Of a DNA stretch of 64,000 nt, positions 13,546 through 29,056 are shown one piece after another; positions within the stretch are counted from its first letter, which is position 1, and each line of letters opens with the position of its first letter. This DNA comes from an uncultured virus (IMG/VR IMGVR_UViG_3300000304_000066) (Duplodnaviria; Heunggongvirae; Uroviricota; Caudoviricetes). Below the pieces are notes generated by a model. It worked only from the letters and a program-made list of their open reading frames with translations, was not told the origin of the DNA and made no database searches. A program made the position numbers and the translations under genes. The stretch lies in IMG/VR virus record IMGVR_UViG_3300000304_000066. The stretch is one strand, 5' to 3'.

Positions 13546-13560
13546 ATACTGTACTATTAG

Positions 13561-13633
13561 TTGCAAGAGAAAGACTCGAACTTTCAACCTTTGGCTTGTG
13601 AGACCAACGCGCTACCAATTGCGCCATCTTGCG
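13561..13633 (-). tRNA. tRNA with CAC anticodon (nominally Val) and an initiator-fMet-like body
   Basis: 73-nt cloverleaf CGCAAGA..GCGC/GCGC..UUGGU-CUCACAA-GCCAA..GAAAG-UUCGAGU-CUUUC-UCUUGCA-A; C1xA72 mismatch. Confidence 0.85.
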
Positions 13634-21711: not shown

Positions 21712-22272
21712 TTAAATTTTTGAAAGTTTTTGAAATATTACTCTCAACTTACGTTTTGCCTTATTTAGGTCGGATTTAATTGTACCGACTGGAATTCCAA
21801 GCTCAACGCTAAGTTGTTCATAACTAAGATCTTTAAAGTATCTCAACTCGAGTAAATTACGATACTTAGATCTTAGACGAGATAGTGCAATCTTCAATAG
21901 ATCAATATCTTCCGTTTTAATCATATCTGACTCGGGATCTGGAGATATTTCTCTAATTTGAAAATTGCTTTCTTCATCATCAATACTAATATTCTTTTGT
22001 AAATCCTTTGATGCTCTGATATAATCAATTGTAGTATTAACTGCAATTGTTTTTAACCAAGCTTCGAAACTTAATGGATTTATATAAGAATCTAATTTAT
22101 TAAAAGCTTTTATGAATGTATTACTTACTAAATCTTTAGTAAGATCATCATCTTTAACTATATCGTATATAATATAGCGTATCAATTTATGATACCGATC
22201 ATATAATTGAGTAAAAGCTTTCTTTTCGCCACGTTTAGCTTGTTCTACGAGAGTATTTGTATCTATTTTCAT
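21712..22272 (-). CDS. ECF-family RNA polymerase sigma factor
   Basis: AFTQLYDRY, FEAWLKTIAVNTTIDYIR (region 2); LSYEQLSVELGIPVGTIKSDLNKAK (region 4). Confidence 0.93.
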   Translation of the reverse strand: MKIDTNTLVEQAKRGEKKAFTQLYDRYHKLIRYIIYDIVKDDDLTKDLVSNTFIKAFNKLDSYINPLSFEAWLKTIAVNTTIDYIRASKDLQKNISIDDEESNFQIREISPDPESDMIKTEDIDLLKIALSRLRSKYRNLLELRYFKDLSYEQLSVELGIPVGTIKSDLNKAKRKLRVIFQKLSKI

Positions 22273-23493: not shown

Positions 23494-23842
23494 TTAAAGT
23501 TGGTATTTCTTTAGTAATAAGAAGTTTTTCAGCTTCTTTCCATTGTCTTGGTAGATTAATCGTACGTATTACTTTACGATATTTATTTACTTTCTTATTA
23601 TGATAGTAATTCCACCAAGTCCAATTAAGAACTTTTACTACTCCAAATTTACTATTTATTCCTTCATTTGTACAAAGAATTACAAATGGATTACCAGAAC
23701 TAAGAATAACTTCATTAGCCGATTTATCCTTAGCACAAGCTCCCATACGAATTAACTTTAAATAAAATCCTTTTAAATGTCTTCGTACACCGGCAGCAAT
23801 AAATTCATTTTTAAACTTTACTAAATTTCTATTCTCATCCAT
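23483..23842 (-). CDS. hypothetical protein
   Basis: 119-aa ORF. Confidence 0.65.
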   Translation of the reverse strand: MDENRNLVKFKNEFIAAGVRRHLKGFYLKLIRMGACAKDKSANEVILSSGNPFVILCTNEGINSKFGVVKVLNWTWWNYYHNKKVNKYRKVIRTINLPRQWKEAEKLLITKEIPTLIAE

Positions 23843-23873
23843 AAAATTTATTATTTATTGATTAAACAATATT

Positions 23874-23947
23874 GTTATCTGTGTGGGATTCGAACCCACA
23901 AACCTCCTGGTAAAATCCAGGGCTCTAGCCATTTGAGCTACAGATAC
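23874..23947 (-). tRNA. pseudo-tRNA (Lys-like) with a 6-nt anticodon loop
   Basis: UAUCUG/CAGAUA, GCUC/GAGC D-arm, CCUGG-AUUUUA-CCAGG, GUGGG-UUCGAAU-CCCAC. Confidence 0.7.
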
Positions 23948-23949
23948 CC

Positions 23950-24160
23950 TCACTTTCGTAGCTAGCACGTTAGATTACGCTGCTATCGCAGTATAATCTG
24001 TGACAAATATATTGCCATTTAAATTTAATTATGAACCTATTTTATCTTCTATATGCAATCAAAAACCCGTTAGCCCCTTGTAAAATATAAATAGTGGAGC
24101 TAGGTGAAGTCGAATCACCGTCTTACATATTTCCAATAAACCTAGTAAGACATCATACAG
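23950..24160 (-). ncRNA. ssrA: circularly permuted (two-piece) tmRNA
   Basis: The 3' acceptor piece GAC-GGUGA-UUCGACU-UCACC-UAGCUCC-A (ends 24095) precedes the 5' piece GGGGCUA (starts 24077). G3.U70 pair; tag GNIFVTDYTAIAA* at 24016-23975. Confidence 0.88.
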
Positions 24161-24186
24161 TTCTTATATGATGAATTTTAATACGT

Positions 24187-24522
24187 TTACTTTGAATTCT
24201 TGTCTTTTAACTTTTTCAAAGTTTTTGTATATTCTTCATTGAACATGTCTTTGAATCTTTCACATTGTTTCGGATAAATTCTAACAAATTCTTCATCTGA
24301 AAGGTCTGTGAATGATTTAGCAATTCTTTTGTTTTTAGTAGTTTTCAGATTTTTGTTGAACTCAACAAAATATCTAGTACTCTCTTTACAGTTAGAACCA
24401 CAAATGACTCTTACTTTAATCATTTGTCTTTCTACTTTACCAAATTTCTTTGTGTATTTGGTTTCTGATTTTACTGCAAGCATACGATCGCATACAGTTA
24501 AGTCTTTTATGAATTTTAACAT
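24187..24522 (-). CDS. hypothetical basic protein
   Basis: 111-aa ORF. Confidence 0.65.
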   Translation of the reverse strand: MLKFIKDLTVCDRMLAVKSETKYTKKFGKVERQMIKVRVICGSNCKESTRYFVEFNKNLKTTKNKRIAKSFTDLSDEEFVRIYPKQCERFKDMFNEEYTKTLKKLKDKNSK

Positions 24523-24559
24523 AATTCTTTATTTGTCGTATTTATAAATGTTAAAATAA

Positions 24560-25110
24560 AATCTAAAGTAATAGTAAATAGGGGATTATTACGTGAACTG
24601 TCAATTATCGGACTTATAGATCTCTTCGGATAATGCCATTTGAGTCACATATTTAGAATAATACTATTTAGGCTTATAGCTCTCTATTACTTTAGTAATT
24701 CGCCTTTGATAGATCATATAGAACTTGAACAGGTTTAATAAATCTAGAACTAAATATACGGATTTACTATATGTTCGGCTTAAAGCTCTAGTTCTATTTG
24801 TGATTTGATATCATTACTATTACAAACTCTATTTCTAGAGCCTATTACTATAGGTCATGGGTTAAACCTCTAGTGATACAACTTGCCGTCTTTATCTACT
24901 GTCGCAATTTATAGTAATAGTAATGATCTTAGGCACATGATCAGTGGCTCAAATCTTCCACTCTGGTTCAAAGACTCTTGAGTTCCTGTTAATTCAGGAT
25001 TTTTTACCTACTACCTTTCGGATTAGAATCGTGGCATTAGTCTCTTTCTAAGAGATAATATAAAATTGTCTAATAGAAGAGACTGAGAGGCCTCTCGGAC
25101 ACTCTCAGCT
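24560..25110 (-). ncRNA. candidate structured RNA with a repeated AGAG..U(A/G)A(G/A)CC motif
   Basis: No ORF; long inverted repeats and about six degenerate motif copies. Confidence 0.5.
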
Positions 25111-25138
25111 CTGATTTTGGAATTGTTAACGATAGAGA

Positions 25139-25519
25139 TTAATATCTCCAAGCGTCATTACCGAAGATGTTTTTCTTAGCTTCGTTAATAGCTTTGTCAC
25201 GCTCATCTTCTGCGGTTTCAACGGCTTTATCATACGTTTGATAATCACCGGATGCTTCAAAGGCAGTCTTTGCTGCTGAAATAGCGGTCAGATATTTCTT
25301 CTGTGCTTCTTCTTTCTTACGAGCAAGACGTAAGGATTTCAGTGCTTCTGTCTCAGTATTTTCAGCTTGAGATAAACGACGTTCTACCTCACGAGCTTGT
25401 TGTTCCAACTTCCGCTGTGCAATATTCTCTTTTGCTTTTGTTACTGCATCGCTTGCTACTCTACCTTGATTTGCCTCTTGCTCTTGCAATTTTGCCTCTA
25501 AATTAAAATCGTTTGCCAT
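25139..25519 (-). CDS. alanine-rich coiled-coil hypothetical protein
   Basis: 126-aa ORF. Confidence 0.75.
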   Translation of the reverse strand: MANDFNLEAKLQEQEANQGRVASDAVTKAKENIAQRKLEQQAREVERRLSQAENTETEALKSLRLARKKEEAQKKYLTAISAAKTAFEASGDYQTYDKAVETAEDERDKAINEAKKNIFGNDAWRY

Positions 25520-27166: not shown

Positions 27167-27256
27167 ACATGATTTTAACGTCCGCACGATCAATTTATAA
27201 TATAATTTTTTATTATGAATCTTACGCCCCACATGTTTGCCATTTTCTGGTGAGTA
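27167..27256 (-). ncRNA. hatchet self-cleaving ribozyme
   Basis: CAGAAAAUGGCAAACAUGUGGGGCGUAAG-[AU-rich P4]-UGAUCGUGCGGACGUUAAAAUCAUGU matches the hatchet core as I recall it; P2 ACAUG/CAUGU. Confidence 0.85.
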
Positions 27257-28968: not shown

Positions 28969-28983
28969 AATCGTAAAATTTTG

Positions 28984-29056
28984 GTTCCTAAGTAGGATTT
29001 GAACCTACGACCTTCCAAAGGTTATGGATGCTCTTCCTGGCTGAGCTATTAGGAAC
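28984..29056 (-). tRNA. pseudo-tRNA with 8-bp acceptor stem and aberrant anticodon arm
   Basis: GUUCCUAA/UUAGGAAC, GCUC/GAGC, UCCA-UAACCUU-UGGA, GUAGG-UUCAAAU-CCUAC; no U33. Confidence 0.7.

Follow-up and report, generated by a model that had tools for sequence, protein, structure and literature searches.

A circularly permuted, probably working tmRNA gene in a crAss-like gut phage

Does a gut phage carry a working transfer-messenger RNA (tmRNA) gene whose parts stand in permuted order and, if so, from which lineage could this split form have come? The question is raised by a short minus-strand locus in the uncultured virus record IMGVR_UViG_3300000304_000066 (IMG/VR; Caudoviricetes), analysed here over 64,000 nucleotides (nt), hereafter the window. 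This DNA is that of a Crassvirales (crAss-like) gut phage: it encodes a Crassvirus major capsid domain (593.8 bits) alongside portal, holin, primase, helicase, ThyX and dUTPase domains, which bears out the proposal, in a preliminary description made from the letters of the window, that the gene is phage-encoded. Considering its anatomy, its covariation across relatives, the conservation of its tag and its likeness to Bacteroidales genes, we are fairly confident that the locus holds an ssrA gene that is circularly permuted and functional.

On the minus strand the gene reads in the order acceptor piece, spacer, coding piece, and as delimited with ARAGORN and the Rfam family tmRNA_permuted (RF04321, matching 24154..23975) it occupies 23947..24173, the 5′ end being provisional. 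It opens with a hairpin (24151..24173) whose stem of 7 base pairs (bp), CAUCAUA/UAUGAUG, closes the loop UAAGAACUG. Between this hairpin and the helix P2b stands UCUUACUAGG, where, in the minimum-energy fold, UCUUACU (24144..24150) pairs with AGUGAGG (23954-23948) as a candidate terminal helix. There follow the 5′ strand of P2b, UUUAUU (24135..24140; partner GAUAAA, 24046-24041), that of P2a, AUAUGUAA (24123..24130; partner at 24058-24051), the trinucleotide GAC (24122-24120), the T arm GGUGA-UUCGACU-UCACC (24103..24119), which has a T loop of the UUCGANU type and aligns to that of RF04321, and the acceptor 3′ strand UAGCUCC with its discriminator A (24095..24102), where 3′ trimming and the addition of CCA are expected. 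A spacer of 17 nt (24078..24094), variable in relatives and expected to be discarded, leads to the coding piece, which starts with the acceptor 5′ strand GGGGCUA (24071..24077), its G1 being the RNase P site expected from sequence and RF04321. The D-loop analogue ACGGGUUUUUGA (24059..24070), which lacks a D stem and aligns to the matching RF04321 positions, is followed by the P2a 3′ strand UUGCAUAU (24051..24058), by the P2b 3′ strand with a box, AUAGGUUCA, that is invariant in our 29-gene alignment (together 24032..24046), and, after UUUAAAU, by the tag frame (23975..24016), which runs from GGC to GCG UAA and reads GNIFVTDYTAIAA before the stop. The last tag codons and the stop codon lie in a P5-like hairpin (23972..23999) that folds in all variants. 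A 3′ hairpin, CGUG-CUAGC-UACG (23957..23969), is predicted by RNAalifold and is invariant, so covariation is uninformative there. The coding piece ends in GUGAGGG, its last base at 23947, and a tRNA-shaped element recognised by ARAGORN and the Rfam tRNA model (23875..23946) starts directly after it.

Every element listed in the preliminary description is present at the place on the minus strand where it had been put. The acceptor stem GGGGCUA/UAGCUCC forms seven pairs, G3.U70 among them, before the discriminator A; this alanine determinant, like the pairing of P2a, had been read from the window and is upheld by conservation and covariation, respectively, in the relatives described below. The statement that CCA is not encoded stands for the full triplet, which is absent from the gene, but fails for its first base: the discriminator is followed by CUA, so that C74 alone is encoded. 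At about 79 nt for the acceptor piece and 131 nt for the coding piece (about 210 nt in all), the gene is indeed very compact, as had been remarked, compared with 397-404 nt for the one-piece tmRNAs of four Bacteroidales genomes.

Both detectors that had been suggested as a check call a permuted tmRNA in the window: ARAGORN does so outright, and RF04321 scores 48.5 bits (E 1.7e-6 for the 64-kilobase window) with a cut-off of 47. With both halves and a conserved tag in place, the proposed circular permutation of the gene is thus well founded. In annotated crAss-like relatives the same model gives 60.3 bits (cr50_1) and 49.6 bits (cr10_1), and the standard tmRNA model, RF00023, reaches only 23.2 bits on cr50_1. 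An unconstrained fold of 24176..23947 yields all the expected helices, at -55.3 kcal/mol (z = -2.94), with none of 200 shuffles as good.

Further evidence comes from the relatives. A 3′ motif search returned 30 IMG/VR loci and a second, gapped pattern 101 stretches; over all loci there were 135 pattern matches, of which 39, lacking GGGG in the 90 bases upstream, were discounted as chance, and the remaining 96 collapsed to 64 unique regions, or 61 once three without a tmRNA feature (L086, L115 and L134) had been dropped. ARAGORN calls a permuted tmRNA in 19 of the 30 IMG/VR loci, and the 11 that it leaves uncalled still hold the gene, eight with an intron in the T loop and three with a long spacer insertion. 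Among 54 loci with enough flanking sequence, 43 have intact acceptor pieces (38 distinct versions) and 11 an interrupted T loop.

From these we aligned 29 distinct intron-free genes. Unguided, RNAalifold recovers the 5′ hairpin, P2b, P2a, the T arm, the first three acceptor pairs, the resume-codon hairpin and the 3′ hairpin, with compensatory changes in 15 of its 41 pairs. For the 52-pair structure as stated, 97.9% of cells pair, against 91.8% in shuffled alignments (0/500 as high) and 36–47% when partners are slid by one to three columns; double changes occur in 18 pairs, against a shuffled mean of 10.3 (0/500) and one or two when slid. An anchored parse finds seven acceptor-stem variants (GGGGCUA, GGGGUUG, GGGGCUG, GGGGGAU, GGGGAAU, GGGGCAU and GGGGAUG), all of which pair fully, with Watson-Crick pairs at positions 5–7 and G3.U70 kept; the unpaired acceptor-stem cells of the alignment are a one-column MAFFT shift in seven sequences. 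The T stem varies just as coherently, GAGGG/CCCUC, GAGGC/GCCUC, GGGGC/GCCCC and the window's GGUGA/UCACC all pairing. Both sides change in six of the eight P2a pairs, and P2b, whose first pair is C-G in 15 genes and U-A in 14, pairs in 100% of cells. The stem of the 5′ hairpin, with both-side changes in five of seven pairs, pairs in 99.5% of cells around a nearly invariant loop, a motif with a single copy at each tmRNA locus and a single copy in the whole window. The survey of relatives that had been proposed therefore speaks for the gene, the tag frame being present in 61/61 unique loci and G3.U70 in all seven acceptor variants. The terminal helix UCUUAYU/ARUGAGG pairs in 95.6% of cells, with no double changes and not above shuffles; it may tie the ends of the two pieces together, as a modelled and unproven candidate only. 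A further pairing, a pseudoknot of YUAG (24145-24142) with CUAR in the 3′ hairpin loop, looked compensatory from the window's C/G and the others' U/A, and was dropped because L101 has C with A.

Why should a tRNA-shaped element abut the last base of this gene? The element in the window has the shape of a tRNA-Lys with an anticodon loop of only 6 nt, AUUUUA; it scores 38 bits with the Rfam tRNA model, and ARAGORN reports it as 'tRNA-???' with a two-base anticodon. At 30 loci ARAGORN gives a two-base 'anticodon' in 12, tRNA-Lys in one and nothing in 17. The variants form a series: in cr55_1 the loop has 7 nt and the neighbour is still called tRNA-Lys(UUU); the window shares the 6-nt AUUUUA with 26 of 58 parsed loci; a tetraloop hairpin takes the place of the anticodon arm in the cr10_1 and L014 types; and the arm is lost in L101 and L133, where acceptor stem and T arm are kept. 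In every relative examined, the element adjoins the conserved GUGAGGG. An acceptor stem with a T arm is a minimal RNase P substrate, and the decay of the anticodon arm while these two parts stay suggests selection for shape rather than decoding. We therefore lean, with modest confidence, towards a processing handle, at which RNase P would set the 3′ end of the coding piece. By analogy only, this recalls mascRNA, the tRNA-like 3′-end processing handle of MALAT1, where cleavage by RNase P at a tRNA-shaped element generates the 3′ end of the RNA that precedes it; here the setting is bacterial and phage, the handle derives from a tRNA-Lys gene and the cleavage is putative.

A plainer, though less probable, possibility is that the neighbour is merely a decaying, co-transcribed tRNA gene, other nucleases setting the 3′ end of an otherwise working tmRNA. 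Phage tRNA genes are often clustered, and the neighbour is tRNA-Lys(UUU) in cr55_1 and tRNA-Leu(UAA) in cr60_1; moreover, the 3′ ends of known two-piece tmRNAs are not known to need a tRNA. Against this, the element keeps one constant position beside ...GUGAGGG in every relative examined and retains acceptor stem and T arm whilst its anticodon arm shrinks or goes, and it is these two regularities that tip us towards the processing handle.

The tag frame provides a second line of evidence. Across the 61 unique loci we found 15 distinct tag open reading frames (ORFs) of 13, 14 or 15 codons, all starting GGC AAY, without a start codon, and ending GCG UAA, which confirms the frame ending in a stop that had been read at 24016-23975. 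Insertions and deletions in it come in threes, and four of the five variable sites in the FVTDY(T/S) core are third codon positions. The context of the resume codon, ...AAAUGGCAAUA, is invariant, and in the relatives with a tmRNA call (19/19) ARAGORN, too, starts the tag at GN..., in agreement with the frame start proposed for the window. The P5 helix of ordinary tmRNA contains the last tag codons and the stop; likewise, all 12 distinct versions of this segment form the P5-like hairpin, whose 3′ strand contains the stop codon.

Several observations nonetheless weigh against a working tmRNA. The RF04321 score of the window barely exceeds the cut-off, no other member of the family has so divergent a tRNA-like domain (19-21/34 bases identical with host tmRNAs), and ARAGORN starts its tag later, at VTDYTAIAA. 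An exact upstream partner of the 5′ acceptor strand, G3.U70 included, is present in 55 of the 61 loci (the other six having a short flank or, in L021, a misset register), but it was found by a complement search, so that this count of pairing stems is partly by construction. The terminal helix lacks covariation, with one pair broken in 9/29 genes. Neither RNAalifold nor the minimum-energy fold predicts any of the pseudoknots PK1 and PK2-4, and the 131-nt coding piece has no room for PK2-4. Pseudoknots are typical rather than universal in tmRNA, and reduced forms have been described (PMC11915505). The GAACU of the hairpin loop is complementary to the GGUUC of the box before the tag, with 5/5 pairs in the 29 genes, and might serve as a pseudoknot-like tie standing in for PK1; these bases show nearly no variation, so that covariation lends the candidate no support. 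Tag endings vary between lineages (AIAA, IGA, AVA, GAA, VAA, CVA), and a role of the tag in degradation in Bacteroidales is putative. Lastly, contigs over parts of the locus occur in three RNA-library runs from two studies, carrying variant tRNA-like modules; being assembled contigs they cannot show RNA ends, and DNA carry-over is possible.

The want of recognisable pseudoknots and the variable last residues would also suit a decoy or rescue-only RNA, one that enters stalled ribosomes or soaks up host SmpB and so blocks or replaces trans-translation, its peptide being no degradation tag. We judge this improbable. A pure decoy would need neither a tag frame, kept in all 61 loci through in-frame indels and core changes mostly at third positions, nor an invariant resume context, nor a stop codon set in a conserved hairpin.

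The spacer is hypervariable. From 17 nt in the window and L007 its length rises to about 600 nt; its sequences, between conserved flanks, fall into six or more unrelated families, a pattern that would fit a segment thrown away on maturation. At 17 nt the window's spacer is the shortest, against some 100–214 nt in cr50_1, cr10_1 and cr60_1. A conserved element of about 100 nt occupies the spacer of cr10_1 (L002, ~1390-1488) and also of L001, L009 and L028; it starts GGUCAGAAGC and contains a T-arm-like hairpin and a second hairpin in which GCAGG/CCUGC becomes GUAGG/CCUAC between copies, and Rfam holds no match for the cr10_1 copy (best 6.7 bits, E 4.3). A longer insertion, of about 590–600 nt, is found in L061 (1035-1580, plus strand), L045, L046, L053, L067, L070, L073 and L078, with a 181-aa ORF on the opposite strand for whose product Pfam returned no match; the T loop of these copies, UAUCGUAU, is unusual as well, at 8 nt.

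Nor is the T loop itself spared: a group I intron splits it in 11 of the 54 loci (RF00028, 58.7-65.7 bits; cut-off 50). In cr55_1 (L003, MT774376, 2727-3680) the gene is both permuted and split by such an intron, in whose opposite strand lies an ORF for an HNH endonuclease, and the tag of the gene reads GNTMFVTDYSCVA; ARAGORN and Rfam both miss this tmRNA, and the record has no tmRNA feature. A table of tmRNA forms in PMC11915505 gives five (standard, permuted, intron and two that lack the coding sequence), and permuted-plus-intron is not among them. Even the tRNA-like domain appears to be exchangeable. In contigs from sequencing run X15, 54 bases of the window (24065-24118) are replaced by 178 other letters, and in runs X16 and X17 a tRNA-like module of the common type follows at 24130; on such sequences, close strains seem to swap the tRNA-like module together with the spacer. 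That the locus is dead, a rearranged scrap of host ssrA or an attachment-site remnant without present function, is very improbable. In its favour, integration is common at tmRNA genes and fragments of ssrA are found in prophages (PMC9004378, PMC11915505), and mobile elements crowd the region (the intron with its HNH endonuclease, the spacer insertions). Against it, a scrap would not covary as these many compensatory changes do, two or more Suoliviridae subfamilies retain both halves together with the tag, and a scan of 63 window ORFs showed no integrase domain.

How, then, might the gene work? No SmpB gene (PF01668) was detected in three complete relatives, whereas all ten bacterial control genomes were positive, and none was found among the 63 ORFs of the window. 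Reliance on host SmpB had been anticipated; with none of its own, the phage would need host SmpB, alanyl-tRNA synthetase, EF-Tu, RNase P, a 3′ trimming enzyme and the CCA-adding enzyme. By analogy with known tmRNA and two-piece tmRNA, a single minus-strand precursor would run from upstream of 24173 through the tRNA-like element ending at 23875. Host RNase P would cut it 5′ of G24077 and probably also 5′ of U23946, freeing a coding piece of about 131 nt, whilst 3′ processing would trim after A24095 and the CCA-adding enzyme would complete an acceptor piece of about 79 nt. The two would be held together by the acceptor stem (7 bp), P2a (8 bp) and P2b (6 bp), and perhaps by the 7-bp terminal helix. 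Alanyl-tRNA synthetase would then charge the RNA by way of G3.U70, SmpB and EF-Tu would deliver it to ribosomes that have stalled where a broken message ends, and translation would resume at GGC 24016, adding (A)GNIFVTDYTAIAA until the UAA stop releases the ribosome. What would the phage gain? Our best guess is that ribosomes are kept free during the destruction of host messages, and that the products are marked with a phage-specific tag.

As for its surroundings, BLAST places the tmRNA region beside those of the Suoliviridae phages cr50_1, cr55_1, cr1_1 and cr10_1. The gene is part of a block of small, unnamed ORFs on the minus strand and stands 1.7 kilobases upstream of an ORF for an extracytoplasmic function (ECF)-type sigma factor (21712-22272, minus strand) with Sigma70 regions 2 and 4, and a sigma factor is annotated at the matching position of cr50_1. 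A scan of 23700-25300 for promoters and terminators gave counts not above chance. On the other side, at 24938-25108 (minus strand), lies a RAGATH-22-like RNA (100.7 bits with E 3e-20, short of the cut-off at 120.3) within a 616-nt stretch without any ORF of at least 50 codons; RAGATH-22 occupies the same place upstream of the tmRNA in cr50_1 (155.6 bits) and cr55_1 (127.5 bits). A Hatchet self-cleaving ribozyme (RF02678, 81.3 bits; cut-off 51) stands about 3 kilobases upstream of the tmRNA on the same strand, at 27167-27254. The window further encodes, again on the minus strand, a tRNA-Val(CAC) at 13560-13633 (ARAGORN, and Rfam with 67.1 bits) and, by ARAGORN only, a tRNA-Gly(ACC) at 28983-29055. 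Sequencing runs that contain DNA of the window are labelled as bird, chicken gut and manure metagenomes; cr50_1, cr10_1 and cr60_1 come from human faeces.

The novelty implied by the preliminary description does not survive. Features named 'transfer-messenger RNA, SsrA' are annotated at the homologous site in cr50_1 (MT774375, 39374-39869) and cr10_1 (MT774382, 26352-26737), the RefSeq record of cr60_1 (NC_055891, Loutivirinae) carries a tmRNA feature too, and Table S1 of PMC9004378 (supplementary file 2, 2022) includes 14 crAssphage tmRNAs, 13 of them marked 'Permuted', cr10_1, cr50_1 and cr60_1 among them. On its sequence, the gene in the window is a further, rather divergent member of this already labelled family. 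In PMC9004378, the main text discusses two-piece tmRNAs for marine phages only, and a full-text literature search found no paper discussing tmRNA genes of crAss-like phages. A tmRNA database published in 2025 holds 79 phage entries; the supplement of its paper has no occurrence of Phage, crAss, 'uncultured phage' or Bacteriophage.

The relatives share much with the window. In cr50_1 and cr10_1 (Suoliviridae, Boorivirinae) and in cr60_1, the site and its flanking genes are homologous to those of the window, the parts stand in like order and a tRNA or tRNA-like element follows directly downstream, whilst the tags belong to one family (GNNFVTDYTAIGA, GNNFVTDYTQLAVA and, in cr60_1, GNTSYVMDYTRLAA). 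The window's own are the T stem GGUGA/UCACC, the acceptor strand GGGGCUA and a tag ending in AIAA. The gene of cr60_1, a more distant Suoliviridae phage (L269, 393-868, minus strand), is built alike: its 5′ hairpin bears another loop, its spacer measures about 170 nt, its tag stops at UGA and a tRNA-Leu(UAA) lies closely downstream; its UUGACU after the 5′ hairpin is complementary to the AGGUCAA before the tag.

For the window itself, then, the outcome is mainly a sound annotation, permuted crAss-like tmRNAs being already in public records and in the supplement of one paper. To the anatomy we add the covarying 5′ hairpin, the hypervariable spacer, the decayed tRNA at the 3′ end, and relatives that are both permuted and intron-split. 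What is apparently undescribed in print is the family as such: its origin, its minimal build, its processing handle and the purpose of its tag. At about 210 nt and without pseudoknots, it would be a natural minimal tmRNA, which could reveal which parts are needed; the conserved phage-specific tag raises the question of how abundant gut phages use the ribosome rescue of their hosts; and the intron-split permuted copies expose a blind spot of the standard finders. An independent origin of the split form, if true, would show how easily permutation arises.

Where could this split form have come from? Four Bacteroidales genomes, Prevotella, Bacteroides and Alistipes among them, have one-piece tmRNAs of 397-404 nt (RF00023, 135-152 bits) with the tags GDNQYALAA, GENNYALAA, GNNNYALAA and GNNNYRLAA; the native Bacteroides tag is given in a preprint as GETNYALAA. 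The resume codon is GGC (Gly) in 4/4 of these hosts and in 61/61 phage loci, and the host genes end, like those of the phages, in CUCCAC followed by two bases other than CA (4/4). Over the last 34 bases of the acceptor piece, the cr10_1 type matches the Prevotella gene at 32, against 20–22 for three alphaproteobacterial two-piece genes and 14 for that of Magnetococcales; the acceptor end of the window matches two-piece genes from outside the hosts at 7–11. With the tRNA-like domain and the resume site set aside, the phage gene is only about 60% identical to host tmRNA. On cr50_1, cr10_1 and cr55_1 (E <= 0.01), the clade model for betaproteobacterial genes gives a partial match of 28.5 bits against a cut-off of 84, and the alphaproteobacterial and cyanobacterial models give none; RF01849, RF01850 and RF01851 have no match at the gathering threshold in the window. 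Bacterial genomes scanned for the phage-type box yielded, among the matches listed, 0/121 that are this tmRNA, all being chance. The suggestion of a probably independent permutation thus gains ground from the canonical T loop, the Bacteroidales-like acceptor and T arm, the GGC codon and the misfit of the clade models, and a separate, Bacteroidota-derived origin is our best reading of the sequences, as compared with those of alphaproteobacterial rather than beta- or cyanobacterial two-piece genes. Exchange of the tRNA-like module with host genes, which we consider because run contigs near the window's flanks carry a different module, could explain part of the likeness. Taken as a whole, the fuller picture seems to us about evenly poised: a separate two-piece birth within Crassvirales, from the one-piece gene of its Bacteroidota hosts reduced to about half the size, with three cuts by tRNA-processing enzymes, the last of them at the decayed-tRNA handle, and a gene that, having a free spacer and a spliceable T loop, became a landing pad for mobile elements, some copies being permuted and split by a group I intron at once.

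Set beside known systems, the gene recalls two of them in different respects. With the alpha-, beta- and cyanobacterial two-piece tmRNAs it has in common the order of acceptor piece, spacer and coding piece; two-piece tmRNAs, including those of marine phages such as Melnitz, are presumed to be matured by tRNA-processing enzymes into two base-paired RNAs (PMC11915505, PMC9004378). However, three alphaproteobacterial two-piece genes score 124-130 bits with RF04321, against 48.5–60.3 bits in the phages, and their T loops are reduced where that of the phage is canonical. Melnitz tmRNA is reported to be of alphaproteobacterial origin and to have a glutamine riboswitch (PMC9004378), neither of which applies to the crAss-like gene. 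With the one-piece tmRNA of Bacteroidales, on the other hand, it shares the canonical T loop, a resume context such as AUAAAUGGCAAUAAC, and tags that start GNN or GEN and end in A-A. The Bacteroidales gene has the standard order, a long, pseudoknot-bearing 3′ region and tags of nine residues, G..NYALAA, whereas that of the phage is permuted, about 210 nt in size and free of the long 3′ region, with a tag of 13–15 residues built around an FVTDY core.

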